Origin: a virus
Lineage: Duplodnaviria > Caudoviricetes
Virus record (IMG/VR): IMGVR_UViG_3300045738_001587
Coordinates: 1 to 59,259 of that record
DNA: 59,259 nt
Strand: one strand, 5' to 3'
Position numbers and translations under genes: made by a program. Below the pieces are notes generated by a model. The model was not told the DNA's origin and did no database searches. It saw only the letters and a list, made by a program, of their open reading frames with translations. Below are positions 32,699 to 56,235 of this stretch, in pieces; within the stretch, counting starts at the first letter, position 1, and each line of letters starts with the position of its first letter.

Positions 32699-33238
32699 AT
32701 GATTGAGATAGAAATTACAGAGGAAATGAAGAAGAGGGCATGGGCCAAGTCACGGGAAATGGGAGTCATAAAGAACTCCATTATGAGTGGCGATGGCAAT
32801 ATAGCAGGGTTCTTAGGCGAAGAAGTAGCAAATTCAGTCATAAAAGGTGAGATCAACAACACTTATGACTACGACATCATTACCAAAGATGGTATTAAAT
32901 ATGATGTCAAGACCAAGAGATGCACTTCGCCCCCCAAGCGCTACTATGATTGCTCTGTTGCTAATTTCAACACAAAACAAAAATGTGACAGATACGTTTT
33001 CGTAAGAATAGAAAACAAAAACAATAGATGGGGAAGAGCTTGGGTTCTTGGCTGGCTTGAACACGATGAGTATTTTAGAAAAGCTCGCAAGCTAACCAAG
33101 GGCGAGGTTGACCCTTCTAACAACTTTGTTGTGCGTGCTGACTGTCACAATGTCGCAATATCAGAATTAACTAACTTCACGGGAGAAGAAGATGCTAGAC
33201 TTCATTTACGACAGGAGAAACTTTCTAAGAATAGGTAG
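32699..33238 (+). CDS. Restriction endonuclease-like fold protein
   Basis: GFLGE, YDYD, YDVKTK, D.YVFV. Confidence 0.6.
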   Translation: MIEIEITEEMKKRAWAKSREMGVIKNSIMSGDGNIAGFLGEEVANSVIKGEINNTYDYDIITKDGIKYDVKTKRCTSPPKRYYDCSVANFNTKQKCDRYVFVRIENKNNRWGRAWVLGWLEHDEYFRKARKLTKGEVDPSNNFVVRADCHNVAISELTNFTGEEDARLHLRQEKLSKNR

Positions 33239-34439
33239 CATTGGAGCCGGGATGAGCGCAGTTGGTCTATCTGACTACGCCTTTTCTCAAGATATAGCTC
33301 TGGGCTACAAAGACAAGACCGTCGTCTGGGTATGGCTAGGTGGAGGGCCGACACAGTTTGAAACTTTCCACGCACCCAACGACACGGTTCCCTCAGAGTG
33401 GCAGCCGGTAAACGGGGCTATTCACGACCCCAAGACTAACATAACCCTTGGGGCTGACTGGAAAGAGCTTTCCAAGCATACTAGCAAGTTAAATGTGGTC
33501 AATTCATTTAGCCACAAAGATTCCTCTCACCGTCAGGGGACTCATTTCGTTATGACTGGACATTACAACGCAGATAGAACGACTACCTCTATGGCAGAGC
33601 ATCCGTCTTTTGGGTCTATCGTGTCTGCTTGTTATGGCCCGAGCAACCCAGACAACGGGGTGCCCACCTATGTTAAGCAGGGCAAGATCGAGGGAGACGA
33701 AGGAACTTGGCTTGGAGGGGCATATAAACCCTTTGACCCATCAAACAAAGATAATCTAACCCCACGCATAGAGCTTTCGCGGTTTACAAGCAGAAAAGAC
33801 TTACTAAACGCAATAGACGGAATAAGAATTTCCGGCAACGGGGCCGAGTCCGTAGAATTTTATAAGGGACAAGCTTATGATGTGATTCTCGGCTCGGCAA
33901 AAGACGCCTTTGACCTTGAAAAAGAAGACCCGAAGACCCACGAACTCTATGGGACAGCCGCCATCGGGCAGCAGCTTCTTTTAGCAAGAAGGCTTGCCGA
34001 ATATGGCACAAGGTTTGTAACTATCCATTATGGGGGATGGGACATGCATGGCAACATCTCTAAGGCCATACAGGGCAAAGTTCCGCCCATAGATAAAGCT
34101 ATTTCTGGCTTCCTTCAAGACGTTTGGGATCGTGGTCTAAGTGAAAAAATTATGCTTGTCGTGACGGGCGAATTTGGAAGAACTAAAATCAATGCCAACT
34201 CTGGCAGGGATCACTGGCCTGCAATTACTCCTATGCTCATGGCTGGTGGACAATATCATTCTGGCAGAACCATTGGCACATCAGACCGATCCTACAGCCC
34301 GTTGGACAATCCAGTTGGGCCGCTTGACCTTCAGGCCACACTGTTTGACCATTTTGGAATAGACAAGGACATACAAAGAGTAGACAACGGTGGACGACCA
34401 AGATATTTACTCGAAGGAGAGGCGAAGGTAATCCTATGA
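33192..34439 (+). CDS. DUF1501 domain protein with Tat signal peptide
   Basis: DRRNFL plus hydrophobic stretch; WLGGGP.Q.ETF, PSFGS, GQQLLLARRLAE.G.RFV, GWDMH, D.GL, GEFGRT..N...GRDHW, AGG. Confidence 0.93.
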   Translation: MLDFIYDRRNFLRIGSIGAGMSAVGLSDYAFSQDIALGYKDKTVVWVWLGGGPTQFETFHAPNDTVPSEWQPVNGAIHDPKTNITLGADWKELSKHTSKLNVVNSFSHKDSSHRQGTHFVMTGHYNADRTTTSMAEHPSFGSIVSACYGPSNPDNGVPTYVKQGKIEGDEGTWLGGAYKPFDPSNKDNLTPRIELSRFTSRKDLLNAIDGIRISGNGAESVEFYKGQAYDVILGSAKDAFDLEKEDPKTHELYGTAAIGQQLLLARRLAEYGTRFVTIHYGGWDMHGNISKAIQGKVPPIDKAISGFLQDVWDRGLSEKIMLVVTGEFGRTKINANSGRDHWPAITPMLMAGGQYHSGRTIGTSDRSYSPLDNPVGPLDLQATLFDHFGIDKDIQRVDNGGRPRYLLEGEAKVIL

Positions 34440-34654
34440 TGACGCTTATTCTAAGAAAAGCAGCACTTCTGCTTGGTGTATTTGGTGTCGGTGCGTGGCT
34501 AATGTACTCAGCCCAAAATGGAAATTATGAAAGGCAAGACCTTCTCAAAGGAATAGCCTTGTGGTCACTTATTGGTTCCTTTGGACTATACATATGTTCG
34601 ACGGGATTACTCAAGTTTCATAGTCGAACTGTTGATAGGAAGGATAACCAATGA
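34436..34654 (+). CDS. Small two-TM membrane protein
   Basis: ATGA-coupled at both ends; two hydrophobic helices. Confidence 0.65.
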   Translation: MMTLILRKAALLLGVFGVGAWLMYSAQNGNYERQDLLKGIALWSLIGSFGLYICSTGLLKFHSRTVDRKDNQ

Positions 34655-34974
34655 CAATTAAACTAACAGAATCCGCAGGAGCAGAGGCTAAGAAATATCT
34701 TGAAGATACCGAAGAAAAGTATCTAAGGATTGGCGTGGAGGGCGGTGGATGTTCTGGCTTTCAGTATAATTTAACAGTAGTCGATGACTACGATGAAGAA
34801 AAAGATACACTGTCTCATCAGTATGGCGTAGATGTTATTGTAGACCAGAAAAGCGATCTCTATTTAGATGGAACTGTCTTAGACTACTACAATGATATTT
34901 CCAAACGTGGTTTTACTTTCAATAATCCCAACGCGACAAAAAGCTGTGGATGCGGAAGCAGTTTTCAGGTGTGA
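34651..34974 (+). CDS. A-type Fe-S cluster carrier (IscA/SufA/ErpA family)
   Basis: LRIGVEGGGCSGFQY, LYLDG..LDY, GF.FNNPNA..SCGCGSSF. Confidence 0.95.
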   Translation: MTIKLTESAGAEAKKYLEDTEEKYLRIGVEGGGCSGFQYNLTVVDDYDEEKDTLSHQYGVDVIVDQKSDLYLDGTVLDYYNDISKRGFTFNNPNATKSCGCGSSFQV

Positions 34975-35248: not shown

Positions 35249-36202
35249 ATGATTAAAGTTGGCGTAGTCGGATATGGCACAATAGGAAAACGTGTGGCAG
35301 ACGCTGTATTGTTACAAGATGATATGGAGCTTGCTGGCGTCACAGCAAATACCTACAACTACAAAATAGAATCTGCCATCAGGAAAGGCATTTCTATATT
35401 CCCGATAGAAAAAATACATCTGCTTCTCAATGAAGTTGATATAGTTGTAGACTGCACCCCAAAGGGAGTAGGAGCCGACAATAAAGAGACATACTCTGAA
35501 GCTGGCGTGAAGGCCATATTTCAAGGTGGAGAAAAGCCCGACGTAGGGTTTAGCTTTGTGGCCCAATGTAACTACGACAAGGCCGTTGGAAAAGATTTCA
35601 TTCGAGTAGTTAGTTGCAACACAACTGGATTATGCAGGACGCTGAAGGCGTTAGATTGTAACTATAACATAGACAAGGTACACGCCACGATGATAAGAAG
35701 GGCCGCCGACCCTTGGGATATATATCACGGGCCCATTAATGCCCTTGTTCCACACTTGGTGGTTCCATCACATCATGGGCCGGATGTTAGAACGATCCTG
35801 CCCAAGTTAGAAATATTCACAACTTCCATATCTGTCCCTACCACGTTGATGCATATGCACAGCATAGCGGTTGACCTAAATACTGCTCCCACCGTTGAAG
35901 AAGTTGTAGATTTGTTTCAGAATACAACAAGGGTTCGCGTCGTGCATAATTCCGATGGAATAAGATCGACAGCCGAAATCATGGAGTACGCCAAAGACCT
36001 TGGTAGAGACAGGGGAGACATGCCAGAGGTGTGTGTGTGGAGCGATACTATCGGAGTGTGGGGAAAGAAGTTGTTATATATACAAGCGATTCACCAAGAA
36101 AGCGACGTTGTTCCAGAAAACATCGATGCAATTAGAGCGGCGTTTGATTTATACCCAGCCGCTAGTAGTATACAAAAGACAAACAAAAGTTTAGGCATAT
36201 AA
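35249..36202 (+). CDS. gap: Glyceraldehyde-3-phosphate dehydrogenase, archaeal type (class II)
   Basis: GYGTIGKRVADAV..QDDM, DCTP.G.G, FQGGEK, RVVSCNTTGL, PSHHGPDV, QAIHQES.VVPENIDAIRA. Confidence 0.93.
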   Translation: MIKVGVVGYGTIGKRVADAVLLQDDMELAGVTANTYNYKIESAIRKGISIFPIEKIHLLLNEVDIVVDCTPKGVGADNKETYSEAGVKAIFQGGEKPDVGFSFVAQCNYDKAVGKDFIRVVSCNTTGLCRTLKALDCNYNIDKVHATMIRRAADPWDIYHGPINALVPHLVVPSHHGPDVRTILPKLEIFTTSISVPTTLMHMHSIAVDLNTAPTVEEVVDLFQNTTRVRVVHNSDGIRSTAEIMEYAKDLGRDRGDMPEVCVWSDTIGVWGKKLLYIQAIHQESDVVPENIDAIRAAFDLYPAASSIQKTNKSLGI

Positions 36203-36231: not shown

Positions 36232-36702
36232 ATGATAAATACATTAAAATATTTTTGTGCGGTACTAATATTGTCAGCGATCCCCACCAGCCCCTTAGTT
36301 GCTCAACAACCAAAAGAGGTTGACCTACAGATAGAGATAAGCAAAACCATTCAGGCTATTAGGGCTATCACGAAGCCAACAGAATCGCCTTATCGCCCCG
36401 CGCTTATTCATCAGTTCAGAAACTTAGAATATTCTCCAGCCGCCAGAGAGCTTGCCGTTGCCCGTAGGCGAGCATCGCTAGACGGCAGGTTCCTCGGTCA
36501 AATGAGAGGCGTCGGTTATCGACCCATCATTTCCTTTTTTCCTCAGGGAGACATGATGACGGTTGGGCCAGTGATAGTTTCACCAGATCGTAGGTATGTA
36601 CGAATAGGAATTTCAGCGGCTAGAACGGGAATCGGCCACGTCTACACCTTCAACTTCTCTACCGGAGAATATCGAAGGCTAGATAATGGAGGCAATAAAT
36701 AA
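36232..36702 (+). CDS. Exported protein with a secretin-like C-terminal beta motif
   Basis: Signal peptide-like N-terminus; GYRPII...PQG......VSPDRRYVRIG......IG.V.TFNF. Confidence 0.55.
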   Translation: MINTLKYFCAVLILSAIPTSPLVAQQPKEVDLQIEISKTIQAIRAITKPTESPYRPALIHQFRNLEYSPAARELAVARRRASLDGRFLGQMRGVGYRPIISFFPQGDMMTVGPVIVSPDRRYVRIGISAARTGIGHVYTFNFSTGEYRRLDNGGNK

Positions 36703-36995
36703 TGAAGTTCCTTAAACTTGCAATGTGCCTACTGTTCATCCTTTCCGTGGCAAACCTTGGCTTCTCTTGTTATATGTATAAGGAGCTTAAGAAAACACCT
36801 GTAATAGACATAGACTTGCCACAGATAAACGCCTTTCGTGGGGAGTCTGCGCAAAGAGACGCCTTTTTGTTCCAAGCAAACCTCATGACCCACCATCGGC
36901 TAGGAATACATGTTCCCGGATCACAAAACATGTGCCCAATGTGCAATACAGAACTTGATCAAGGCACAGAAGCTTTAAAAATTACGGGAAATTAG
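36702..36995 (+). CDS. Membrane-anchored hypothetical protein with His/CxxC motif
   Basis: TAATG coupling; N-terminal TM; HH....H.......CPMC. Confidence 0.65.
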   Translation: MKFLKLAMCLLFILSVANLGFSCYMYKELKKTPVIDIDLPQINAFRGESAQRDAFLFQANLMTHHRLGIHVPGSQNMCPMCNTELDQGTEALKITGN

Positions 36996-37016
36996 TGTTG
37001 AACCCGACAGTTTTGA

Positions 37017-37027
37017 CTATAATATAG
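37017..37027 (+). promoter_or_regulatory. Putative -10 element (CTATAATATAG) upstream of the polymerase genes
   Basis: TATAAT at 37018-37023 in an intergenic gap. Confidence 0.5.
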
Positions 37028-37085
37028 TGACGACGGTCAATCTTGTTGTCATTTTAATATTGAAATTAACTTTGAAGGATCTACT

Positions 37086-38720
37086 ATGGATTGGGCTCCG
37101 CTCTGCAACTATACTCACTATAGCTTACTCAAGGGCTTTTCTAAGCCATCCCAGCTCGCCCAAAAATGCAAAGAGAACGACTACAAGGCCTGCGGAATTG
37201 CAGACTATAAATCAATCTCTGGGGCCGTGAGCTTCTTTCAGTCGTGCATCAAGCATGGCATCAAGCCAATTATTGGCTGTTCTTTTGATGGATTCACGCT
37301 CTTTGCTAAAAGCAAATCAGGGTGGCTCGATCTCATTCAACTTGTATCCTCTATAGGAGAAGACGGGAACCTTAATAGCCACGTTTTAAATGATGTGTGC
37401 CGCCGTGGGAATCTTATTTCTATCTCCGAAACTGAGCAAACCTCACCCATAAAGGGTGAAGACTTTTACGCTAAGACGCCAGCGTTGATGGACACATATT
37501 ACACAGAAAAGAAGGACGCTCCGCTGCATAGGGTTTTGCTTTGCTCGAAATTAAAAACAACGCTCCCGAAAATCAACAAAGCTCTTTCCAAAAATGAAGA
37601 CTTTGAGTTTAGGGAGTTCTTTGAACGCAACGACTTTCATCTGAGAGATTCGGTAGAAATATGCGAAATCCTCACTGAGGACAGAGAGCTAAATGTCAAA
37701 AAAATTATTGACAAGTGCGAGGACTACGACATCCTAAGCAAGCCAATGCTTCCAAAGTTCACAACCCCCACCGGAGCGTCAGAAGAAGAATATTTGAAAG
37801 AACTATGCAGGCACGGCTGGGTCGAACTTCTAGCAGAAAACGGAAAGGTTACCAACGACGAAGACAAAGAAAAATACCTAGAAAGATTCACAGAGGAATT
37901 CAGGGTAATTAAAGAAGCAAATCTCTTTGGTTATTTCTTAATTGTTAGAGATATCATTAGCTTTGTTAATAGCAAGGGCTGGCTATCAGGGCCGGGAAGA
38001 GGCTCTGCCGCCGGGTGCTTAATTTCCTATCTGGTGGGCATTACAAAGATTGACCCAATTGAGTACGGGCTTTTGTTTGAGAGGTTCTATAATAGTGGTA
38101 GAAACACAGATGACCATGTCTCCCTGCCGGACATTGATATTGATGTTCCCGGTAACAAAAGAGATGAGATCATCGAATACTTAAAAGACACATACGGGAA
38201 GCACAATGTTAGCCAGATGGTCACCTTTGGCAGACTGCAAGGCAGAAGCGCCATAAAAGAAATACTAAGAATTAACGAGGCTTGCTCCTTTGGGGAGATG
38301 AACGAAATCTCTAAAAGCATACCAAATGAATCCGACGTATCTGACCAGCTTCAGGCTATGGACGAAGAGGACAGGTCTATAATCAAATTCGCTCTCCTTG
38401 ACAACCCAGAAGAACTGAGAGATTATTGCTATGTAACAGAAAAGGGCAGGCTAGAAGGAGATTACGCAGAATACTTTGAGCAGGCCATCAGGATTGAGGG
38501 TACGTTTAAAACTCAAGGTAAGCACGCCGCAGGAATTGTTATATCGTCTGACCACCTATATAATGTTTGTCCTATGGTAAACCAGAAAAGCGGATCAGAA
38601 AAAATCGCAGGATTAGAAATGGCCGACCTCGAAAGCTTGGGCCATGTCAAGTTTGACATACTAGGTATTAATCTCCTAGATAAGATTATGAAAATTGAGG
38701 AACTATTAAATGTCGTATAG
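37086..38720 (+). CDS. dnaE: DNA polymerase III alpha (DnaE), N-terminal part: degenerate PHP, palm, thumb
   Basis: HYSLL, GIKPIIG, YFLIV.D, GPGRGSAAG, LLFERF, PDIDID, GKHAAG, KFDILG, then stop. Confidence 0.93.
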   Translation: MDWAPLCNYTHYSLLKGFSKPSQLAQKCKENDYKACGIADYKSISGAVSFFQSCIKHGIKPIIGCSFDGFTLFAKSKSGWLDLIQLVSSIGEDGNLNSHVLNDVCRRGNLISISETEQTSPIKGEDFYAKTPALMDTYYTEKKDAPLHRVLLCSKLKTTLPKINKALSKNEDFEFREFFERNDFHLRDSVEICEILTEDRELNVKKIIDKCEDYDILSKPMLPKFTTPTGASEEEYLKELCRHGWVELLAENGKVTNDEDKEKYLERFTEEFRVIKEANLFGYFLIVRDIISFVNSKGWLSGPGRGSAAGCLISYLVGITKIDPIEYGLLFERFYNSGRNTDDHVSLPDIDIDVPGNKRDEIIEYLKDTYGKHNVSQMVTFGRLQGRSAIKEILRINEACSFGEMNEISKSIPNESDVSDQLQAMDEEDRSIIKFALLDNPEELRDYCYVTEKGRLEGDYAEYFEQAIRIEGTFKTQGKHAAGIVISSDHLYNVCPMVNQKSGSEKIAGLEMADLESLGHVKFDILGINLLDKIMKIEELLNVV

Positions 38721-39387
38721 AGATTATATTGTTTTTGACTTTGAAACTGGGTCTAGAAACCCGCAAAAAACACAGCCGACACAGATCGCCGCACTAGCTC
38801 TGGACGGCAGGAACTTTAGGCTTAAGGGAACTTTTAATAGTGAAATTAGGCCAATCATAGACGACGAAAAAGCCATTAAGGCTGGCTTAGACCCGTTGGA
38901 AGATGAAGCCCTCAGAATCACAGGCAAGACGAGGAAAGCGTTAGCTAAAGCCCCGCTGCCCAAAACGGTATGGAAAAAGTTTGAAAACTTTGTAAACCAA
39001 TACAACTGGAAGGGCACACAGTTTTTTGCTCCCATTCCAGCGGGGTTTAATATTATTGGTTTCGACATGATTATCGTAAATAGAATGTGTGAACAATATG
39101 GCTCATACGACAAAGAAAGACAGCAGCAAAAGATATTTAACAAGATTTACAAAGTTGACATGATGGACAATATGTTTATGTGGACTGAGGGAGACCCGTC
39201 CATCAAGTCTATAAGCATGGACTCATTAAGAGAACGAATGGGCCTAAGCAGCGAAAACGCCCACGATGCCCTACAGGACGTTAAAGACACGGCAAATATT
39301 ATGATTAAATTTATGAAGACTCACAGGGCCGTGTATCGTAACTTAAAAATTGACAAGGCTTTTGCGGACGGCGAATTATATGTCTAA
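38710..39387 (+). CDS. DEDDh 3'-5' exonuclease (DnaQ-like)
   Basis: FDFETG (ExoI), FN...FD (ExoII), HDALQD (ExoIII). Confidence 0.9.
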   Translation: MSYRDYIVFDFETGSRNPQKTQPTQIAALALDGRNFRLKGTFNSEIRPIIDDEKAIKAGLDPLEDEALRITGKTRKALAKAPLPKTVWKKFENFVNQYNWKGTQFFAPIPAGFNIIGFDMIIVNRMCEQYGSYDKERQQQKIFNKIYKVDMMDNMFMWTEGDPSIKSISMDSLRERMGLSSENAHDALQDVKDTANIMIKFMKTHRAVYRNLKIDKAFADGELYV

Positions 39388-40951
39388 AGAAATAGATTAT
39401 AAGTGCGAAGAAACATGGAGCTTGTTCCACGAAGGAAGAACTAAAGGTGTTTTCCAGCTTGAGAGTAACCTAGGAAAGTCTTGGTCTAGAAAGCTCAAGC
39501 CCAGCAACATAGAGGAACTCGCGGCGCTGGTTGCCCTTATCAGGCCGGGATGTCTCAAGGCTATATCCAACGGAAAGTCTATGACACAAAGATACATCGA
39601 CAGGAAGAATGGATCGGAAAAGGTTGAGTATCTACACGACGCACTGGAGGACATTTTAAAGCCCACTTATGGTGTTCTTGTATATCAGGAACAATCTATG
39701 AGAATAGTCCAAAAACTTGCTGGTTTTGACCTCAAAGATGCCGACATACTACGAAAGGCTATCGGGAAAAAGAAAGCTGGCTTGATGGCAAAAGTAAAGC
39801 GGTCTTTCCTAAAGGGCGCAGCCAGTAAAGAAATTGTTACAAGTGAAGAAGCCGAAGAAATCTTTAGTTGGATTGAAAAGTCCAGCAGATACTCGTTCAA
39901 TAAGTCTCACGCCGTAGCATATGCAATATGTTCCTTCTGGAGTGCCTTCTACAAGGTTCATCACACTGAACAATTCTTTCTTGCTTATCTGTATCATGCC
40001 AACGAAAAACAGGACACACACGAAGAAGTATATGAATTGGTTTCCGACGCGAAGCTTTTTGATATAAAAACCAAGACTCCAAACATAACAAACTTCTCTG
40101 AAAAGTTTAATATGTCAAATGGATCAATATATTTTGGCGTCAAGGACGTTAAGTCGCTGACAGGAAAGACCGGCGACAAGGCCATAGCCGCCGTCAAAGA
40201 GCTTTCGTCCCAGCTAGGCAAGAGCGCTAAGAGCTTCAGTTGGCTAGATATACTCATCAACCTAACCCCCAAAATAAACGCCACGGCGTTCAAAGCTCTG
40301 GCTTCCATTGGATTTTTCAGAGGGTTCAAAGATAAGATAACAAGGAACAGAGCCCTTTATGAGTACGAGATATACAGGAGTCTAACCAAGGCCGAAGTGC
40401 GATGGATTGAAGAAAACTACAGAATCCTTAAGTGGAGAAGTTTAATCGACTGCCTGATTGACTTGGCCCCAGTAAAGAAGGAAGGCGGCGGCACTAGCAA
40501 GGAAGCTAGGTCAGAGGCAGTAAGAAATGAAATACATTTTCTCGAAAACCCACCTTACGACCTTTCCGATGACCCAAGCTGGATTATAGAACAGGAAGTA
40601 AAGTTTTTGGGATGCCCCGTTTCAATGTCAAAAATAGAAGCGGCAGATATTTCTGGCGCTAATACCACCTGTAAAGAAATAGCCGAAGGGAAAAATGGAA
40701 AAAGCCTTCTGGTGGCTGGAAACATAAAAAGAGTATCAAACTATAAGATTAAAAAGGGGAAATCAAAAGGAGAATATATGTCCTTTCTAACCATAGAAGA
40801 CGACACATGCACCTTAGATAGTGTCGTTATTTTCCCAGATTGTCGCAAAAAGTTTCAATATTCTTTATATGAAGGGAATAACTTACTGTTTAGCGGATCT
40901 GTCTCAAAAGAAGATAATTCCCTAATTGTTAATAACATTTTTGAGATTTAG
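39380..40951 (+). CDS. dnaE: DNA polymerase III alpha (DnaE), C-terminal part: fingers, HhH, OB fold
   Basis: GVFQLES, ALIRPG, TYGVLVYQEQ, LRKAIGKK, YSFNKSHAVAY, K.G..M.FLTIED; ATG 39380. Confidence 0.93.
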   Translation: MSKEIDYKCEETWSLFHEGRTKGVFQLESNLGKSWSRKLKPSNIEELAALVALIRPGCLKAISNGKSMTQRYIDRKNGSEKVEYLHDALEDILKPTYGVLVYQEQSMRIVQKLAGFDLKDADILRKAIGKKKAGLMAKVKRSFLKGAASKEIVTSEEAEEIFSWIEKSSRYSFNKSHAVAYAICSFWSAFYKVHHTEQFFLAYLYHANEKQDTHEEVYELVSDAKLFDIKTKTPNITNFSEKFNMSNGSIYFGVKDVKSLTGKTGDKAIAAVKELSSQLGKSAKSFSWLDILINLTPKINATAFKALASIGFFRGFKDKITRNRALYEYEIYRSLTKAEVRWIEENYRILKWRSLIDCLIDLAPVKKEGGGTSKEARSEAVRNEIHFLENPPYDLSDDPSWIIEQEVKFLGCPVSMSKIEAADISGANTTCKEIAEGKNGKSLLVAGNIKRVSNYKIKKGKSKGEYMSFLTIEDDTCTLDSVVIFPDCRKKFQYSLYEGNNLLFSGSVSKEDNSLIVNNIFEI

Positions 40952-41053
40952 TGTGTCTTTTTGTGCCTGTATCATCTAATATAGTAAGATGGGCTTTCTG
41001 TAAATAAAGGGATATAAATGGGAAGATATGATAATTGACTTAAGGAAACAACA

Positions 41054-41362
41054 ATGAATCTTTGTTCTTTTACCGGGTACTTAACCGAAGACCCGAAGCT
41101 CTCTAAACCAAACGGAGTGAGCCTGATTGAGTTCACTCTAGTTGTCTACACTTACAGAACAACCAAAAGCACGGGAGAGAAGAGCCGTATTCCGACCTTC
41201 TTGAACTGCGAGGCTTGGCATACTGGTGCTGACACCATAGCAAAGCTTGCCACCAAGGGGACAAAGATGCATGTTCATGCTTCTGCCAAAAACCCCTCAA
41301 AAGGCGCTAAAGGCACCATTTTTAGAGTAAACGAATTTGACTTCTGTGGCATAGAAGAGTAA
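41054..41362 (+). CDS. Second SSB-family OB-fold protein without a long acidic tail
   Basis: MN...FTG.LT.DP, F.L.V, FL.CEAW...A..I....KG; 102 aa. Confidence 0.75.
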   Translation: MNLCSFTGYLTEDPKLSKPNGVSLIEFTLVVYTYRTTKSTGEKSRIPTFLNCEAWHTGADTIAKLATKGTKMHVHASAKNPSKGAKGTIFRVNEFDFCGIEE

Positions 41363-41364
41363 AT

Positions 41365-43047
41365 ATGAGAAAAAAAAGAATACTGTTCTGTAGCGAAGCA
41401 ACCTTTCTTAATACTGGCTATGCAACTTATACAAGAGAGACTCTAAAATACCTCAACAGCACGGGCAAGTATGAGCTAGCAGAAATGGCGTCCTACGGAG
41501 AAAGAGACGACCCAAGAGCCAAGGATATTCCGTGGAAGTTTTATGGCGTCATGCCCAACCAAAACTGTGAGCCAAAGTCTAGCAAGCAAGAAATAGATTC
41601 CTATCACGCTAAACCAACCAACCAGTTTGGCGAGTATGCATTTGAGTCTACATGCCTAGACTTTATGCCCGATATAGTTTGTGACATTAGAGACTTTTGG
41701 ATGCTGGACTTCGCTGAAAGGTCTCCGTTCAGAAGGCACTTCAAGTGGTGCATAATGCCAACGGTGGACGCAAGCCCACAGGCTAGACAGTGGATCTCAA
41801 CATACCAGAGCGCCGACGCCTGTCTTACATATTCAGATTGGGCCGGAGAGGTTCTCAAAGATCAATCCGGTGGAAAAATCAATTACTTAGGCACAGCATC
41901 GCCTTCGGCTCATCCGGCATACAAACCAGTTGGCGACAAAAAGGCTCACAAGGAAGGGTACGGCCTAGATCCAAAATATAAGATTATCGGCACAGTAATG
42001 AGAAACCAAAGAAGGAAGCTTTATCCAGATCTTTTTGAGGCCTTCAAGTTATTTTTAGATAAGTCTAAGGACAAAAATTATTACCTTTATTGTCACACGA
42101 GCTACCCAGACCTAGGGTGGGACATACCTGAGTTGCTTCAGCAACATGAAATATCATCCAAGGTTCTATTCACGTATGTATGCCCAGAGACGAATAACGT
42201 GTTTCCTTCCCTTTTTAGGGGGGCGATTCAGGAGTCTCCTTTCACAAAGCAGTATAACGCCCAGCTTTGTAGTGTCAAGAACGGAGCAAGCTACGAGCAA
42301 CTTGCCAGCATAATCAACTTGTTTGATCTTTATGTGCAGTACGCAAACTCCGAAGGGTTTGGCCTGCCGCAAGTAGAGGCTGCCGCATGCGGTGTGCCAA
42401 TCATGTCTACCGACTATTCGGCAATGGAAAGTGTTGTCAGGAAGCTATCGGGAGTCCCCCTGAAACCAAAAGCCCTCTATAAAGAGCTTGAGACTGGTTG
42501 CTATAGAGCCGTTCCAGACAATAAGCTAGCAGCAAAAGAGTTCCAAAACTTCTTTTCTCTTAGTGAAGCCGATAGATCCAAAAAAGGGGCCGAAACCAGA
42601 GAGTGTTTTATGAAATACTATCAATGGCACCTAAGTGGTAAAAAGTGGGAAAATTATTTTGATAGCGTTGAGATAGCACCCGTAGAGCAAACTTGGGCCT
42701 CCCCACCAATGACAATTGAGTCCGCTCCAAAGCCAGACTTTTCAGAAAATACTCCAAACATAGCCATGCTTGCGAGATGGCTTATTACTGATGTATTAAG
42801 AAGGGCCGACTTAGTAAATTCCTTTTTTGAGTCCAGACTCACAAGAGACCTAACATACAGAAATGCTACCGGATCAACCGGCGGCATGTACTTTAATGAA
42901 AATTCAGCAGCCTTTGATGGCCAAAACACCAGAAACCCATTCTCCCCAGAAATTGCCTACGACCACTTCAAAGAGCTAAACGACAGGCAAATATTTTGGG
43001 AGTCCAGAAGAATTGATTCTATGAAAGAAAGAGGAATAATAAAGTAA
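41365..43047 (+). CDS. GT4 (GT-B) glycosyltransferase, large
   Basis: TGY, RNQRRK, DLYVQ...EGFGLPQVEAAACGVP..STDYS. Confidence 0.88.
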   Translation: MRKKRILFCSEATFLNTGYATYTRETLKYLNSTGKYELAEMASYGERDDPRAKDIPWKFYGVMPNQNCEPKSSKQEIDSYHAKPTNQFGEYAFESTCLDFMPDIVCDIRDFWMLDFAERSPFRRHFKWCIMPTVDASPQARQWISTYQSADACLTYSDWAGEVLKDQSGGKINYLGTASPSAHPAYKPVGDKKAHKEGYGLDPKYKIIGTVMRNQRRKLYPDLFEAFKLFLDKSKDKNYYLYCHTSYPDLGWDIPELLQQHEISSKVLFTYVCPETNNVFPSLFRGAIQESPFTKQYNAQLCSVKNGASYEQLASIINLFDLYVQYANSEGFGLPQVEAAACGVPIMSTDYSAMESVVRKLSGVPLKPKALYKELETGCYRAVPDNKLAAKEFQNFFSLSEADRSKKGAETRECFMKYYQWHLSGKKWENYFDSVEIAPVEQTWASPPMTIESAPKPDFSENTPNIAMLARWLITDVLRRADLVNSFFESRLTRDLTYRNATGSTGGMYFNENSAAFDGQNTRNPFSPEIAYDHFKELNDRQIFWESRRIDSMKERGIIK

Positions 43048-43208
43048 TGGGTACATACTGGGGATACACCCGCAGGGATCATATGTGGTATGCCTGTTAT
43101 TATATTGAGGGCAAAGCTAAAGTCAAACTAGGGCCGTTTTATACACAAGAAGAAGTCATGGAGGCGGCAGAAAAACATGACGCCCCCAAAAAGGATACTA
43201 ATAAATGA
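43047..43208 (+). CDS. 53-aa AP2-like domain protein (not in ORF track)
   Basis: MGTYWGYTRRDHMWYACYYIEGKAKVKLGPFYTQEEVMEAAEKHDAPKKDTNK; TAATG and ATGA overlaps. Confidence 0.65.
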   Translation: MGTYWGYTRRDHMWYACYYIEGKAKVKLGPFYTQEEVMEAAEKHDAPKKDTNK

Positions 43209-44332
43209 AGGTATTGTATTTCGGACACTATAAAGAGGGAACAGGGTGGGCTCAGGCCGCAATTGATTATATGCTGGCTATGGACTCGATTGGAATTGAT
43301 GTTGTCTGTAGAAACGTAAACCTGACCGGCGTTGAGTACCCTGTTCCAGACAAGATACTAGAACTAGAAAAAAAGCCTACCTACGGTGCGGAATACTGTA
43401 TTCAGCATTTGCTCCCCCATCATCTAGTGGGAACAGGCAGCTTCAAGAAAAATGTGGCTTACTTTGCCGGAGAAACCACAACAATCAAACACCAACCTTG
43501 GTTTGTTCATCTGGAGCAGATGGACGAAGTGTGGGTTCCCAACACAGACCTATGGCAAGCCCTATCTTTGGACAATCTAATAACCCCCAATGGAATAAAG
43601 GTTCTCCCACACACTAAAGATATAGACAGCTACAATAAACAGACAGAAGTTATTAATATACCGGAGGCAGAGGGGAAATTCAAGTTCTACTATATAGCCG
43701 ATCTAAGTGAGAGGAAAAACCTTATCTCTACACTCAGATGCTTTCATAGTGAATTTTCTGCTTCTGATAACGTATCTCTCATACTAAAGACCAAAAAACA
43801 TGGCGCTCCCCCTCAAGAGCTAGCAGATCATGTTAAGAATATTTCAAACTCGGTAAAGAAGAGGCTAAGAATATTCTCAAATATAGAGTACTATGTTGAC
43901 GACATAATAATTGCTGAAGAAGTTAGTGGCGACGTAATTTCTGGGATACATAAATATGCTGACTGCTTTCTAGGCATAAGCCGGGGAGAGGGGTGGTCTA
44001 TTCCTGCATTTGACGCTATGGCCCACGGCAATACACCGATATGCAGCAACTTCGGTGGGCCAAAAGAATTCATCGACAGTGAAAATGAGTCAACTGGATG
44101 CCTTGTAGACGGCCAGCTATCTGTTTGCGATTGCCCAGACGCAGCTTTCCCTGAGATATTTACTGGACAAGAAAACTGGTTCCAACCCAATGAAATAAAA
44201 ACGAAGAGGGCTATGAGGCATTATTACGAGCAAAGGAAAAGCATAGACAGGAACGCCGGACTGGAGCAAGCCAAAAAGTTTTCTTACGAGAATATAGGAA
44301 ACAAGATAAAGGAGTTTTTAACCAATGGCTAA
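43205..44332 (+). CDS. GT4 (GT-B) glycosyltransferase
   Basis: DEVWVP, ERKN, SRGEGWSIPAFDAMAHG. Confidence 0.85.
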   Translation: MKVLYFGHYKEGTGWAQAAIDYMLAMDSIGIDVVCRNVNLTGVEYPVPDKILELEKKPTYGAEYCIQHLLPHHLVGTGSFKKNVAYFAGETTTIKHQPWFVHLEQMDEVWVPNTDLWQALSLDNLITPNGIKVLPHTKDIDSYNKQTEVINIPEAEGKFKFYYIADLSERKNLISTLRCFHSEFSASDNVSLILKTKKHGAPPQELADHVKNISNSVKKRLRIFSNIEYYVDDIIIAEEVSGDVISGIHKYADCFLGISRGEGWSIPAFDAMAHGNTPICSNFGGPKEFIDSENESTGCLVDGQLSVCDCPDAAFPEIFTGQENWFQPNEIKTKRAMRHYYEQRKSIDRNAGLEQAKKFSYENIGNKIKEFLTNG

Positions 44333-45356
44333 AACTTTTAATGTCAAACTACCAGAGATGGCCCCGAATAGGCTCGTGATTAGACACATAGCTCAGGCAC
44401 AAGGCGAAAAACCAGAAAAATATAATATCCTCACCTTTGCAGCTCACGAGAGATATCAAAGCCAGCTAGCCAAAACGGGACACAATTTCTATCTCTTTGA
44501 GACTGAAGGAATAAAAACTTGGAACGAGAACTTTGCCCCACTCCCAGACAACCACTATGTGCTTCCTAGGGAAACTATATATAGAGGTGTTAAGTTCGAC
44601 ATGATGTTATCTCATAGCAAGTTTGGTCAATTTCAGATAACACAGGTGTTAAATAAAAACTTAGACCTTCCGCTGATATCCTTAGAGCATACGGTTCCAA
44701 CACCAAACCTCAAAGACGAATGGGTAGAAGAAATCAAAAATATGACAGGAGACATAAACGTCTTCATCTCTGAATACTCAAAGGGCGTTTGGGGTTTAAA
44801 CACAGACAATATAGATATAATTCACCACAGCGTTGACTCTGAGACCTTCAAACCCATCTCCATTGAGCAGCAGCCTCACGTACTTAGCGTTGTAAACGAT
44901 TATAAGAACAGGGACTACTGCTGCAACTATAGCGGCTGGCTCAGAATAACAGAAGGCTTGAACGCCGTTGTGGTAGGTGAAAATGATGATCTGGGCAGCC
45001 CCGCTCCCTCTATTCAGGCGTTGGTAGAAGAGTATAATAAAGCTCAGGTATTCCTAAACACATCAACATTTAGCCCCATTCCAAGCGTTCTCCTAGAGGC
45101 TATGGCGTGCGGCTGTGCCGTTGTTAGTACGGCGACCTGCATGATACCAGAAGTCATTGAGCATGGCGTAAACGGCATGATGTCAAACGACGAGGACGAA
45201 CTAAGGGGCTATATAGACCAGCTTCTTGAGGATAAAGAGCTACGCGCTAGGCTAGGAGAAGAAGCCAGAAAGACTATAGTAAAAAAGTTCAGCGAAGAAA
45301 ACTTTTTAAATAATTGGAATAATATTTTCGATAAAGCATATGAGGTTTCCAAATGA
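44325..45356 (+). CDS. GT4 (GT-B) glycosyltransferase
   Basis: VD...F.P, FLNTS..SP.P..LLEAMACGCAVVST, PEVIEHG.NG. Confidence 0.85.
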   Translation: MAKTFNVKLPEMAPNRLVIRHIAQAQGEKPEKYNILTFAAHERYQSQLAKTGHNFYLFETEGIKTWNENFAPLPDNHYVLPRETIYRGVKFDMMLSHSKFGQFQITQVLNKNLDLPLISLEHTVPTPNLKDEWVEEIKNMTGDINVFISEYSKGVWGLNTDNIDIIHHSVDSETFKPISIEQQPHVLSVVNDYKNRDYCCNYSGWLRITEGLNAVVVGENDDLGSPAPSIQALVEEYNKAQVFLNTSTFSPIPSVLLEAMACGCAVVSTATCMIPEVIEHGVNGMMSNDEDELRGYIDQLLEDKELRARLGEEARKTIVKKFSEENFLNNWNNIFDKAYEVSK

Positions 45357-51319: not shown

Positions 51320-51356
51320 GATTTTTTAACTTAGATTACATGTGTCTGGAGCTGTA

Positions 51357-52118
51357 ATGAAGATATTAGTAGTTGGAGATGCGTGTACCGATGAGTATGT
51401 GTATGGCGATTGTGTTAGGCTGTGCCCAGAGGGCCCGGTTCCGATACTTAATGAATTAGAGAGAACCAAAACTCTAGGAATGGCCGCAAACACATACCAG
51501 AACATGCTTGTGTTTTGTTCTGATACTGAGCTAATATCTAACAACCCCATAGAAATCATAAAAACCAGATTCGTCGATAGAAAGACTAACCAGTTGTTAT
51601 TGAGGGTAGACACCCGCGACAGGACAGAAAGGATATCGAAACAAAATATTGACGAAATATGTGATAATCAATATGACCTAATAGTCGCATCGGACTACTG
51701 CAAGGGCTTTCTACATGATGAGGACTTAACTAAGATAGGGCGAGCAAGTGATCACATCTCAGTTTTGGACAGCAAAAGACCTATTAGCCAAAAGATTATA
51801 GACTCATTTGATTTTGTCAAACTCAATAAAAATGAATATAACAAGAATAAAGAGATACTAAGCCACCCCTCCAACAAGCGGAAAACCGTTATCACAATGG
51901 GCGGAGAGGGAGTAAGGTTTCTTGATGAAAAATATAAACCGGTAAAAACCCTGCAAACCTTTGATGTGTCTGGCGCTGGCGATGTTTTTACTGCTGTGTT
52001 TTCTTATAGTGTAGCCTGTGGGTTCAGTGTTAGTGATTCTATAATATCGGCACAGAATTGCTGTATCAAGGTAATCCAGCGAAGGGGAACATGCGTCTAT
52101 GAAAAAGATATGGACTAA
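51357..52118 (+). CDS. PfkB-family kinase, HldE/RfaE domain I-like (heptose-7-phosphate kinase-like)
   Basis: VVGD...D.Y.YG...RLCPE.PVP, GMAAN, KTR, LLRVD, SDY.KG, DVSGAGD. Confidence 0.85.
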   Translation: MKILVVGDACTDEYVYGDCVRLCPEGPVPILNELERTKTLGMAANTYQNMLVFCSDTELISNNPIEIIKTRFVDRKTNQLLLRVDTRDRTERISKQNIDEICDNQYDLIVASDYCKGFLHDEDLTKIGRASDHISVLDSKRPISQKIIDSFDFVKLNKNEYNKNKEILSHPSNKRKTVITMGGEGVRFLDEKYKPVKTLQTFDVSGAGDVFTAVFSYSVACGFSVSDSIISAQNCCIKVIQRRGTCVYEKDMD

Positions 52119-52494
52119 TGGATGCTTTGATGTTTTGCACTTGGGGCATCTTAGGCTTTTGGAATATGCAAAATCCTGCGGAGACTATTTGACCGTAGGA
52201 ATAGATTCCGACCGTAGGGTAAGGCAACTGAAGGGAACAAAAAGACCCATAAACAACGAATTTTTTAGAAGAGAAATGCTATCAGGTATTAGATGGGTTG
52301 ATAATGTAGTAGTTTTCGACTCCGACGCAGAACTGGAAAAATTGATTGAAACACATTCAGACCAAATGATTATTGGTTCTGACTACAGAGATAAAAGAGT
52401 AATAGGCTCTCAATATTCGGAAGTGGTGTTTTTTGACAAAATAGATGACTATTCTACTACGAATATAATAAAGAAACTTTCGGAGGAGCGATGA
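52099..52494 (+). CDS. Nucleotidyltransferase, HldE/RfaE domain II-like
   Basis: TNGCFDVLHLGH, VGIDSD..VR.LKG..RPIN, GSDY, STT. Confidence 0.9.
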   Translation: MKKIWTNGCFDVLHLGHLRLLEYAKSCGDYLTVGIDSDRRVRQLKGTKRPINNEFFRREMLSGIRWVDNVVVFDSDAELEKLIETHSDQMIIGSDYRDKRVIGSQYSEVVFFDKIDDYSTTNIIKKLSEER

Positions 52495-53195
52495 AAGACC
52501 GCGTTATATTTCTGGGCCATCTTGGTCTAGGAGACCATATTATACAACAGGGTATTGTAAATAGGCTCGCTAGTCAATACAAGCGTGTTTTGATTTTTTG
52601 CAAGAATCATAACCTAGGGTCGGTTAGATATATGTGCGACTCCAACGTGGATATCACGCCCGTAGCGGGAGACGCCGATGTGCATCAAATATACCCACAG
52701 ATAGAAAATACAGATATAATTAGTGTGGGTTTTTATAATAATAATTGGGAAAAGTTTCCCGCAAGTGAAACAACTTTTGATAGATACTTTTACGAACAGG
52801 CTGAGATGGATTTTGAAGTTAGCTATGAAGTCAAGCTTGATAGTCTTGTTGAACAAAAGGCCAATAGCAAAGTAATGGAACTGATCTCCCTCGACCCCCT
52901 CGTCGGTAAATATGAACCCTTTTGCTTTGTGCATGATGACAGAGAAAGGGGTTTTGAAATAGATACGAATAGAATAAGCCCACACCTTAAGATAGTTAGA
53001 CCTTCAGTCAGAGCAGAAAAGATATTTGATTATATACCATTAATACAGAAGGCGGATGAAATTCATTGTATAGACAGCTCCTTTGCTCTTATGATAGATA
53101 GAGTGGAAGTAAGTTGCGATAAATACATGCATCGCTATGCAAGAGAGAACAGTCTTAACCCCTCCTACAGGGAAGACTGGATAATGTTACAATGA
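52491..53195 (+). CDS. Glycosyltransferase-like protein
   Basis: HLGLGD, FD..FY, FVHDD..RG, A.EIHCIDSSF. Confidence 0.6.
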   Translation: MKDRVIFLGHLGLGDHIIQQGIVNRLASQYKRVLIFCKNHNLGSVRYMCDSNVDITPVAGDADVHQIYPQIENTDIISVGFYNNNWEKFPASETTFDRYFYEQAEMDFEVSYEVKLDSLVEQKANSKVMELISLDPLVGKYEPFCFVHDDRERGFEIDTNRISPHLKIVRPSVRAEKIFDYIPLIQKADEIHCIDSSFALMIDRVEVSCDKYMHRYARENSLNPSYREDWIMLQ

Positions 53196-53263
53196 AGGAG
53201 TTCGACGATTCTTTGCTAACCCCATTGGATATAGAAAAGAGCATAGACATAAGGACTTATTAG

Positions 53264-54139
53264 ATGCGCTACATTTGCTACAACTGGTTTCCAACAATAG
53301 CAGACCACTGCTTAGATTGCGAAGAGTCTGCGTACACACACTGTGGAGTAAGCAGGCTACACGACAAAATATTAGTCCCAGACCGCGTTTTGGACAATGA
53401 AACTGTTTTTGTAAAGTCAGATTTTATATACAACGGACTGTTTCAAGGAGAGATATTGCCAAAGATTAAGAGTCGATTTACTCTTATATCCGGGATTTCA
53501 TCTTTGCCCGTGGGTGACGGTGCCTCCATTCGCCCAATACTTGAAAATGATCTAGTAGAGAATTGGTTTTGCACAAACCCGCCTGTCTTAGAAGGCAAGC
53601 TTCCGAGCAAGGTTGTTCCCCTGCCAATTGGTTTTGAGGAAAAAGAACGTGAAGGCGGTGATCAAAAAATTATACATCGTAGGAGACTTGAGAGGATTCC
53701 ATTTGAAGAAAAAAAGGACAGAATACTCTTGCCACACCATAACTTTGGGACAAACATAAGCAGGCGAGAGTTATTTGAAAAGATCGCCAGCCTGCATTTT
53801 GTGGACACGCAAGAAAACAAGCTTACTTGGGAAGAATACATAAAGCTCGTGGATAGGTATAAGTTTGTCATTGGCTTGGAGGGCTCAGGCCACGATATTC
53901 ACAGGAACTATGATGCCCTTCTAGTAGACACTGTGCCGATAAACAAAAGAAATATCATAGAAAAGCTTTTTGGTTTCCATGAAATACCGGGAATATTTAT
54001 TGAATCTTGGGACAATCTAAACGCAGACAAATTTGGAAAAATTCTTAACTTACACCACGACTTTGAAAAGTCTGGCAAATTTCTACATATAGACTATCAT
54101 AAAAGTTTGATTGAGAAGTTTAAAACGGAGGATAATTGA
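53264..54139 (+). CDS. Exostosin/GT47-like glycosyltransferase (divergent)
   Basis: LPIG, T...R, YKFV...EG.G.D.HR.YDAL....VP. Confidence 0.6.
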   Translation: MRYICYNWFPTIADHCLDCEESAYTHCGVSRLHDKILVPDRVLDNETVFVKSDFIYNGLFQGEILPKIKSRFTLISGISSLPVGDGASIRPILENDLVENWFCTNPPVLEGKLPSKVVPLPIGFEEKEREGGDQKIIHRRRLERIPFEEKKDRILLPHHNFGTNISRRELFEKIASLHFVDTQENKLTWEEYIKLVDRYKFVIGLEGSGHDIHRNYDALLVDTVPINKRNIIEKLFGFHEIPGIFIESWDNLNADKFGKILNLHHDFEKSGKFLHIDYHKSLIEKFKTEDN

Positions 54140-55278
54140 AAATGACAGTTAAGTTCAATAATTTAAACGCCCAGTGGCAAGTCATTAAAGGCAAGTGCTT
54201 ACCCGCAATTAATGGTCTATTTGAAAAATCCGATTTTATACTTGGTGACGCCGTAAGCGAGTTTGAAGAAATGTTTGCAAGCTATGTTGGATGCAAATAC
54301 GCAGTCGGTGTATCAAACGGAACTGACGCACTAAAGCTGGCCGCTCAGTCCCTCGCAATTCAGGGCAGCAAAACTTTGTTTGTTATACCGGCCAACGCGT
54401 TCATTGCAACCATTATGGGAATTGAACAAGCGGCCCCAAATGCAGACTATAGATTAATAGACTGCAATGAATATCACCAAATAGACACCATCCAATTAGA
54501 ATGGCTCTTGGCAACAGAAAGAAAGGACTATGACTATGTTGTTATTGTTCCTGTGCATCTATATGGGTATACATGCGACATGGGAAAAATCTGCGAACTG
54601 GCAGACAGGTTTGACTGCGCCATATTAGAGGATGCGTCTCAGGCTCATGGGGCCAAATGGAAAGGGAGGCCCGTTGGAAGCTTTGGGGACGTTGCCGCCT
54701 TCTCCCTGTGTCCGGGGAAAAATCTTGGCGCAGCAGGTGACGCTGGAGTGATAACCACAGACGACAGAAGAGCCTACATCATCCTTCAATCGCTACGAAA
54801 CCTAGGCTCGCGGAAAAAGAATGAACATAATATTTGTGGAGGAAATCATAGGCTAGACACTATTCAGGCCGTCATATTAAAAGAAAAAATGAATTATATT
54901 GATTTGTGGAATGAGGAGCGCAGGCAGGTAGCTAACCAGTACGAGGCAAAAATCAAAAACAAAAACATAGTCCTTCCCTCTACGCCAAAGTGGTGCGAAC
55001 CAGTTCATTATGTGTATCCAGTCAAGGCTGACAACAGAAAGCGGTTTACTGAATATCTCGATAAAAATGGGGTTCAATGGGGCGTCCACTATCCAAGGTG
55101 CATAGAGGAAACGCCAATGTACAGACACTTGATTAGAGTTGGCGAAGATTCCAACAAGCTGTCGGGGCCAAATTACAGAGCCCTTCAGTATAGCAACGAA
55201 ATGGTCAGCCTTCCTATTCATCCATTTATGGGGCCTGAGGTAGATATCGTATGCGAGGTAATTAATGAATACAAATAG
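54136..55278 (+). CDS. DegT/DnrJ/EryC1/StrS sugar aminotransferase
   Basis: VSNGTDAL, PVHLYG, EDASQAHGA, S..PGKNLGA.GDAG, N.RLD.IQA, SLPIHP. Confidence 0.93.
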   Translation: MKMTVKFNNLNAQWQVIKGKCLPAINGLFEKSDFILGDAVSEFEEMFASYVGCKYAVGVSNGTDALKLAAQSLAIQGSKTLFVIPANAFIATIMGIEQAAPNADYRLIDCNEYHQIDTIQLEWLLATERKDYDYVVIVPVHLYGYTCDMGKICELADRFDCAILEDASQAHGAKWKGRPVGSFGDVAAFSLCPGKNLGAAGDAGVITTDDRRAYIILQSLRNLGSRKKNEHNICGGNHRLDTIQAVILKEKMNYIDLWNEERRQVANQYEAKIKNKNIVLPSTPKWCEPVHYVYPVKADNRKRFTEYLDKNGVQWGVHYPRCIEETPMYRHLIRVGEDSNKLSGPNYRALQYSNEMVSLPIHPFMGPEVDIVCEVINEYK

Positions 55279-55314
55279 AACACAATTAACTTCTTGAGAA
55301 AAGGAACTACAAAC

Positions 55315-56235
55315 ATGAAAAGAGTACTACTGACTGGGGCAAATGGATTTGTAGGCTCCAACGTTTACATGAGACTAAAGAGCAGATTCAACATCATCCC
55401 CGCTCATAGCATAGACCTAAGATCGGAACTTGTGTGCAGGAAAACTATCGAAAACAGCCATTGTGATGTTATCGTCCACACCGCAGGCAAGGTTGGCGGC
55501 ATTGGGGCCAACGGCAGGAATCCCGGCAGGTTCTTCTATGACAATATGTTAATGGGATTGAACATGATTGAACACGCCCGTCAAGTAGGCGTGGATAAAT
55601 TTATCATGCTAGGAACAGTATGTTCATATCCCAAGCTAACGCCGGTTCCCTTTAGTGAGAGCGAAATATGGAATGGGTATCCAGAGGAAACAAACGCCCC
55701 TTATGGAATAGCGAAAAAGGCGCTAATGGAAATGATTTCTGCATACCACAAGCAGTACAACTTTCCCGGAGTTAATCTAATCCCCGTAAATATGTACGGC
55801 CCACACGATCATTTCAATCTAACAGACAGCCATGTCATACCCGCCCTCATCACAAAGATTGACCAAGCCAAGAAGAACGGCGATGAGTCGATAAAGGTGT
55901 GGGGAACGGGTGAAGCCTCAAGGGAATTTCTTTTTGTTGGCGACTTTGCTGAAGCGGTGGGGCAAGCAATAGATGTTGAGGTCGGGCCTGAGCCAATCAA
56001 TATCGGGACGGGCAAGGAGATCAAAATATCAGAGCTTGTAGAAAAAATTTGCAGCATACTAGGGTATGACGGAGAAATTCTTTATGACACATCTAAGCCG
56101 GACGGTCAGCCCAGAAGATGTTTAGATGTAACGAGAGCCAAGGATCTTCTTGGGTTTGAAGCTTTAACGAATCTTGACCAAGGGCTAGAACAGACAATTG
56201 AGTTTTACAATCTCAAGAAGGGGGAAGAAGAATGA
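55315..56235 (+). CDS. fcl: GDP-L-fucose synthase
   Basis: TGANGFVG, A.KVGGI.AN, GTVCSYPK, YGIAK, SHVIPALI, WGTG.ASREFL, KPDGQPRRCLD. Confidence 0.93.
   Translation: MKRVLLTGANGFVGSNVYMRLKSRFNIIPAHSIDLRSELVCRKTIENSHCDVIVHTAGKVGGIGANGRNPGRFFYDNMLMGLNMIEHARQVGVDKFIMLGTVCSYPKLTPVPFSESEIWNGYPEETNAPYGIAKKALMEMISAYHKQYNFPGVNLIPVNMYGPHDHFNLTDSHVIPALITKIDQAKKNGDESIKVWGTGEASREFLFVGDFAEAVGQAIDVEVGPEPINIGTGKEIKISELVEKICSILGYDGEILYDTSKPDGQPRRCLDVTRAKDLLGFEALTNLDQGLEQTIEFYNLKKGEEE

Follow-up and report, generated by a model that had tools for sequence, protein, structure and literature searches.

A family C DNA polymerase gene split without inteins around a DEDDh exonuclease gene in an uncultured marine virus and related viral contigs

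The stretch of DNA analysed here, called the window throughout, is the whole 59,259 bases of IMG/VR virus record IMGVR_UViG_3300045738_001587, a metagenome assembly of an uncultured marine virus with an estimated completeness of 37% (CheckV). Nearly all of its genes lie on the + strand. Positions 37086-40951 are filled by three overlapping open reading frames (ORFs), each a step of +1 in frame from the one before: the first part of a dnaE gene (dnaE-N, product N), an exonuclease gene (X) and the second part of dnaE (dnaE-C, product C). The features of this locus are as follows.

37086..38720, + strand: dnaE-N, 544 amino acids (aa), degenerate PHP domain, palm and thumb of a C-family polymerase (ORF list, Pfam, alignment to E. 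coli alpha)
38697..38720, + strand: N/X junction, with GAGG at 38697-38700, 9 nucleotides (nt) ahead of the X ATG at 38710, and the N stop TAG at 38718-38720 (read from the sequence)
38710..39387, + strand: X, 225 aa, predicted stand-alone DEDDh 3'-5' exonuclease of DnaQ-like fold with a conserved C-terminal tail (Pfam RNase_T, PHROGs, structure model)
39366..39387, + strand: X/C junction, with the weakly purine-rich GGACGG at 39366-39371, the C ATG at 39380 and the X stop TAA at 39385-39387 (read from the sequence)
39380..40951, + strand: dnaE-C, 523 aa from the ATG, fingers, helix-hairpin-helix (HhH) and OB modules (ORF list, Pfam, alignment to E. coli alpha)

The ORFs and the junction letters confirm what the original prediction, an earlier note on this DNA, had read here: three genes with their own ATGs, a DEDDh exonuclease nested between two parts of dnaE, and overlaps of 11 nt (38710-38720) and 8 nt (39380-39387). 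Its landmarks hold as well. N was said to stop about 17 aa past the motif KFDILG, which occupies N522-527, 17 residues ahead of the end, and C to begin shortly ahead of GVFQLES, found at C23-29. The third ORF opens at an in-frame TTG at 39350 (39350..40951), which would be a less likely start of C than the ATG at 39380 because the proteins of relatives align from the ATG. The surroundings of the start codons are alike at both junctions, TTAAATGTCGTA at 38704-38716 and TTATATGTCTAA at 39374-39386, which may reflect chance or a common start context. A promoter and terminator scan of 36600-41400 returned 11 promoter-like and 5 terminator-like sites, against shuffle means of 8.8 and 5.2, and is thus uninformative.

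In N, Pfam recognises a PHP domain (PF02811, 55.5 bits, cut-off 26.4) and the DNA_pol3_alpha palm (PF07733, 231.9 bits), whose whole profile (1-260 of 260) is matched by residues 235-527. In C, it recognises the fingers (DNA_pol3_finger, PF17657, 160 bits) from profile position 23 on, together with HHH_6 at 19.8 bits and OB at 17.1 bits, both weak and under their cut-offs; we judge fingers, HhH and OB modules of the DnaE type to be present in C, the latter two weakly. On a phage DnaE profile of 1190 positions (PHROGs), N covers positions 243-614 and C covers 625-1065. No NCBIfam cut-off is reached by either half, and neither matches as a single full-length chain would: against TIGR00594, N scores 340.6 bits and C 268.3 bits, with a cut-off of 434.35. 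By the PHP domain, the palm with its three Asp residues and the fingers, N and C together are assigned, on sequence grounds, to the DnaE type of C-family polymerases.

The position of the cut was read from an alignment to solved E. coli alpha chains, in which N540 pairs with alpha residue 571 and C11 with residue 595, C being aligned to residues 595-855 and weakly to 982-1059. By the domain borders of E. coli alpha, the cut thus corresponds to the linker 572-594 at the border of palm and fingers, just past the third catalytic Asp. Three relatives with an unsplit gene read through this same linker without a break, and nothing is gained or lost at the cut. Residues D349, D351 and D524 of N pair with D401, D403 and D555 of E. 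coli alpha, which we take to be its catalytic residues, and all three are invariant in 26/26 N sequences; finger motifs of C (for example L124-K132) are invariant in 24/24 sequences. Because the carboxylates sit in N and the conserved finger motifs in C, neither half would be expected to polymerise by itself.

The six N-terminal ligand columns of the PHP domain spell CYKDYS in the window and HHDDHE in 127 of 206 relatives, in agreement with the earlier claim that metal ligands of the window's PHP domain were lost. Nine further relatives keep the last four ligands. The loss is limited to the window's clade and a few others, and the three unsplit relatives keep all six. Decay of the PHP domain, noted in the original prediction, does not account for the exonuclease: since most relatives retain both the PHP ligands and X, the latter cannot simply be regarded as making up for an inactive PHP domain.

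The nested gene X matches the RNase_T/DEDDh family (PF00929, 48 bits, cut-off 24) and phrog_192, 'DNA polymerase exonuclease subunit' (1.4e-22), a label that is an annotation rather than a test. Its DEDDh residues D10, E12, D119, H185 and D190 are kept in 165/165 unique relatives. A structure model of X (predicted local distance difference test, pLDDT, 94.3) was compared with known folds using Foldseek, and the best matches were the exonuclease domain of E. coli ExoI (E 1e-11), the DinG exonuclease domain, RNase T (2e-10) and CRN-4, with template modelling (TM) scores of 0.62-0.69 on the query for ExoI, RNase T and DinG; PolC-type polymerases ranked lower. In a profile search of PDB the best solved match was the PolC exonuclease domain 2P1J (E 2e-5), and ExoI was also returned. 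With the superfamily motifs on a modelled RNase H-like fold, X is predicted to be a generic DEDDh (DnaQ-like) nuclease. Its C-terminal tail carries a conserved motif, with F218 in 95% of the 165 sequences, which is also retained in loci that lack an overlap between the tail and C. A search for longer proteins fused to X returned one match, P0001 (430 aa, on a 1.8-kb contig), in which X residues ~37-225 are joined to ~240 N-terminal residues unrelated to DnaE; this is probably a chimeric contig. No other fused protein was found in that search, which by its nature is weak evidence.

To place the locus among relatives, all + strand ORFs of related viral contigs were searched with profiles, giving 227 loci on 224 distinct contigs. 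The order N-X-C in separate ORFs is found in 201 loci (198 contigs), so that the split point and gene order of the window, for which a survey of viral contigs had been proposed, recur in 201/227 loci (198/224 contigs). Three loci (L107, L126, L127) have X upstream of a single ORF with both N and C, immediately so in all three. In a distant group, at ~30% identity, N and C lie without X nearby, in a single ORF (7 loci) or as separate ORFs (1 locus). The remainder, mostly at contig ends, have N only (9 loci) or N-X only (6 loci). Among close loci the order N-X-C is kept in 35/43. The - strand of 124 loci was also searched and gave no match. Two exceptions among the loci with N only (L064:7911-13868 and L068:7854-13864) show N and a small ORF followed by more than 5.9 kb of ORFs that look metabolic when read by eye, in place of X and C, which must lie elsewhere in these contigs.

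Used as query in an exhaustive search, N matched 18,583 proteins (E <= 1e-3). The 150 best representatives comprise 133 of under 700 aa, 11 longer ones that likewise stop at the split point and 6 that continue past it; three of those 11 were scanned (P0137, P0185, P0205) and all have inteins. None of the 6 run-on proteins has an exonuclease domain between palm and fingers. One protein, P0233 (762 aa), is a DnaE-N half with a circularly permuted YpsA SLOG domain at its C-terminus (PF12694, 1.6e-35). In a 'phages' collection 1380 records matched, all below 60% identity and those among the matches listed below 34%, and no cultured close relative was found in that collection. The dnaE of Cellulophaga phage phi13:1 consists of two genes that are divided at a different point and enclose no exonuclease.

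A tree of N was built from 53 rows, after dropping rows at least 70% identical and leaving out 22 partial or multi-piece loci. Three distant unsplit genes served as its root, and in it the X-linked family forms one group, with a value of 99 in the Shimodaira-Hasegawa-like approximate likelihood ratio test (SH-aLRT). The base of the family is a polytomy of the unsplit clade and four split clades. It is possible that the split arose once.

The junctions themselves are far less uniform than the gene order. In the 192 N-X-C loci with readable boundaries all nine combinations of frame steps occur, the (+1,+1) state of the window in 43. N overlaps X in 42/192 loci, X overlaps C in 87/192, and both overlaps occur together in 23/192, so the claim that translational coupling sets the stoichiometry of the products fails as a feature of the family. 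A spacer of 121-350 nt separates N from X in 119/192 loci, and all 119 hold an ORF of 46-96 aa there (mode 59-60), as at L064:7911-8138 and in L055 between 7914 and 8134. These small ORFs are of at least two sequence types, with little in common but a Cys, and have no counterpart in the window's clade. More than 350 nt lie in a junction in 39/192 loci, up to 4.4 kb and including whole genes. Endonuclease_7 (PF02945) ORFs occupy the X/C junction at L017:8800-9145, L025:8292-8679 and L040:8277-8637, and resemble free-standing homing nucleases, while inserts of 212 aa (L015), 173 aa (L017), 161 aa (L005) and 159 aa (L044) had no Pfam match.

No Hint or intein match was found by Pfam in N or C of the window, with the same library that found inteins in relatives at other sites. 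As just 4 residues at the end of N and 10 at the start of C fall outside the alignment to E. coli alpha, there is no room for an intein at these ends, and the earlier observation that no intein ends are visible stands. The arrangement that defines a split-intein dnaE, with the N-part of an intein on the first half and the C-part on the second, is thus absent from the window, as is a homing-family nuclease between the halves, X being the sole gene there. The window junctions also have no non-coding room for an intron, and a search of Rfam at E <= 1 gave no intron, its one match being a chance long non-coding RNA.

Inteins do occur elsewhere in relatives. In a 176-kb relative (L034:5974-12683) at least five coding pieces make up the polymerase: the first part of N terminates, after GPGRG, in the N-part of an intein, an intein C-part (...HN) opens a second ORF that continues with SAAGCLI, the remainder of N is in a third ORF, further ORFs and X come next, and C has an in-frame mini-intein of ~125 aa after FNK. 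A second recurrent break lies in the fingers near C profile position 172-184, between FNK and SH, in L126:5001-9687, L053, L119 and L120. In L126 this break cuts an otherwise unsplit dnaE, and the proteins P0123 and P0258 end there with an intein N-part.

Several lines of evidence indicate that the locus is real and in use. A 1530-nt contig of sequencing run X2, from an independent study, covers 38226-39755, both junctions included, without a single difference or gap; the window itself may come from run X1. A joined form of the DNA was seen in none of 4 runs. The junctions recur in independent data and the relatives are mostly split, the opposite of one of the outcomes that were to count against the original prediction. 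Median pairwise ratios of nonsynonymous to synonymous substitution (dN/dS), with saturated and too close pairs left out, are 0.06 for N (17/325 usable pairs), 0.025 for X (11/351) and 0.027 for C (7/276), meaning that all three genes are under strong purifying selection and that X is the most constrained. Five relatives are rated 100% complete by CheckV (159-206 kb, terminal repeats in one); 5/5 contain the palm domain, and no PolA or PolB match was found in any of them. One of these records (G005, the 206,326-base record of L120) has palm copies at 53291-54163 and 199351-200223, 146 kb apart, and may be longer than one genome unit.

With these observations in mind we suggest, at a probability of roughly 80%, that the locus encodes a three-chain replicase in which the halves of DnaE re-associate non-covalently and X is most likely the 3'-5' proofreader. 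In this enzyme N would give the catalytic carboxylates, the thumb and a degenerate PHP domain, and C the fingers that bind nucleotide and template as well as the HhH and OB DNA-binding modules. Cut in the palm/fingers linker, the two would most likely find each other as do the pieces of split PolB (43A/43B) and split NrdA in T4-related phages, and X would most likely proofread by analogy with epsilon, its C-terminal tail being a candidate docking peptide. In the window's clade the overlapping genes are probably co-translated from one mRNA, while in the wider family they would be mere neighbours. The link of X to the polymerase is drawn from its position, as the constant occupant of the split that also adjoins unsplit dnaE and is the most constrained gene of the three. 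One may speculate further that the docking site of X is the palm/fingers cut or its vicinity and not the PHP domain, and that X helps to hold the halves together as a trans version of an inserted proofreading domain, the arrangement having arisen once, within a very large group of aquatic viruses, out of an unsplit ancestor that had X upstream; we consider this extension improbable.

Some observations weigh against a three-chain replicase with X as its proofreader. X is not an orthologue of epsilon (DnaQ), the separate subunit named in the original prediction. No epsilon chain was among its PDB profile matches at E <= 1e-3, and no NCBIfam model reached its cut-off, the best scoring 29 bits against 261 and the epsilon models TIGR01406 (dnaQ_proteo) and NF004964 giving 20.1 against 222.7 and 18.6 against 236; the nearest folds are ExoI, RNase T and DinG. 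The 127/206 relatives with all six N-terminal PHP ligands could proofread via the PHP domain. The tight overlap of the genes is not conserved and is a minority state among the 192 loci. Finally, no dnaN sliding clamp was found in the five complete relatives, phage-type clamps lying outside that search. A complex prediction for N, C residues 1-225 and X, with X as the partner, gave no verdict (score 0.04, mark 0.32, run without controls) and speaks neither for nor against binding.

It may be that the halves form a polymerase and that X is an independent DEDDh nuclease, serving for instance recombination, breakdown of host DNA or trimming of RNA or DNA ends, which lodged at the split and was kept by operon linkage. 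The folds nearest to X, its distance from every epsilon family model and the apparently intact PHP domain of most relatives all fit such a gene, as does the lodging of other, unrelated genes in the same junctions. However, those other inserts vary, whereas X is constant between the halves in 198/224 contigs; it adjoins dnaE in the three unsplit loci as well, and has the lowest dN/dS of the three genes, while the phrog_192 label, as annotation only, points the same way. We therefore regard an independent nuclease as improbable.

Much less probable is the production of a single chain, whether the ribosome shifts frame in a programmed way along N-X-C, the proteins are joined by trans-splicing, or X is spliced out of the RNA. 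The short overlaps with a +1 step at both window junctions would suit frameshifting, and the original prediction had set a frameshifted polyprotein aside as the less likely course. Relatives show all nine frame combinations, spacers and inserted genes of up to 4.4 kb, and a conserved frameshift polyprotein is therefore ruled out for the family. Trans-splicing is opposed by the lack of a Hint or intein match at the ends and by the 4 and 10 unaligned residues, and RNA splicing by the lack of an intron model and of non-coding room. Moreover, the 6 run-on proteins among the best 150 representatives carry no exonuclease domain between palm and fingers, and the sole longer relative of X is chimeric, its N-terminus being unrelated. 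That the locus is a product of faulty assembly or a pseudogene in decay, as one might suspect in a metagenome assembly estimated to be 37% complete, seems the most remote explanation of all: a contig from an independent study matches both junctions letter for letter, the layout recurs in 198 contigs, selection is strong with catalytic residues invariant, and this is the sole polymerase in 5 complete relatives.

DNA polymerase III (Pol III) alpha is the textbook single-chain bacterial replicase. The window resembles the E. coli Pol III core (alpha, epsilon and theta) in pairing a DnaE that has a degenerate PHP domain with a separate DEDDh exonuclease bearing a short C-terminal tail. It differs in that alpha is one chain in E. 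coli, that X fails every epsilon family model and that binding of X is here a prediction; moreover, E. coli dnaQ is unlinked to dnaE. In PolC of Firmicutes, whose domain 2P1J is the best PDB match of X, a DEDDh exonuclease is likewise nested in the coding region of a C-family polymerase. The PolC exonuclease belongs to the polymerase chain itself, as a domain set within PHP, unlike that of the window, which is a separate gene at the palm/fingers border.

Comparable cases of gene splitting can be drawn from the accessible parts of several reports. The split PolB 43A/43B of Aeromonas phages 25 and 44RR co-purify and polymerise, and the split NrdA of phage Aeh1 is active (PMC2988022; also PMC3045599). 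As there, an essential phage replication enzyme of the window is in two cistrons without an intein and with other DNA between. The pieces of PolB and NrdA re-associate into active enzyme, as the window halves would; the former are a family B polymerase and a ribonucleotide reductase split in few phages by a homing endonuclease gene or an untranslated spacer, whereas the latter are a family C polymerase, with a split common to ~200 diverged contigs and a likely functional partner, the DEDDh exonuclease, as the insert. In cyanobacterial split DnaE and metagenomic 'fractured' dnaE, split inteins rejoin the pieces covalently (Dassa et al. 2009, PMC2677866). The 'fractured' genes of marine and lake metagenomes are like the window locus in being in pieces with a gene between, and unlike it in having split-intein halves and a homing endonuclease, neither of which is at the window cut (PMC2677866). 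The relative L034 has a split intein of the 'fractured' type, but at another site, between GPGRG and SAAG. T4-like jumbo phages have a minimal Pol III alpha catalytic module as two stand-alone proteins (Iyer et al. 2021, PMC7824862); according to the accessible part of that account, these are without PHP and other domains, are encoded by distant genes, accompany a family B polymerase and have no nested exonuclease. In the accessible part of a 2026 survey of bacterial polymerases (PMC12926913), 'split' is not used for DnaE. A literature search, with subscription journals and supplements outside its reach, did not turn up any account of a dnaE that is split without an intein and has an exonuclease nested in it, and the locus is apparently an undescribed, widespread variant of split replication enzymes.

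The split dnaE of the window is embedded in a replication module with ribonucleotide reductase, dUTPase, PhoH, a RecA-like protein, DnaB, primase, deoxynucleoside monophosphate (dNMP) kinase, a PD-(D/E)XK nuclease and two single-stranded DNA-binding proteins. Further genes are unusual for a virus and include a SufBD fragment, an IscA-like Fe-S assembly protein, a glyceraldehyde-3-phosphate dehydrogenase (GAPDH)-like dehydrogenase, a DUF1501 protein and three clusters of glycosyltransferase and sugar-nucleotide genes. These auxiliary genes lie at 30-341, 34651-34971, 35249-36199, 33192-34436, 9422-13119, 41365-45353 and 51342-56232.

For annotation, the finding means that the halves of such polymerases, which fail full-length models, are easily called fragments or pseudogenes. 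The junctions together with two further sites in dnaE are hot spots for inteins and nuclease genes, and should be useful for studying how genes become fragmented. A natural, intein-free split between palm and fingers in ~200 viral contigs, with genomes of 160-200 kb, would mean an active site assembled from two chains, and offers a ready means of studying the docking between a C-family polymerase and its proofreader. Were X to dock at the cut, the order of the genes would mirror the enzyme, and this would be a new architecture for a C-family replicase.

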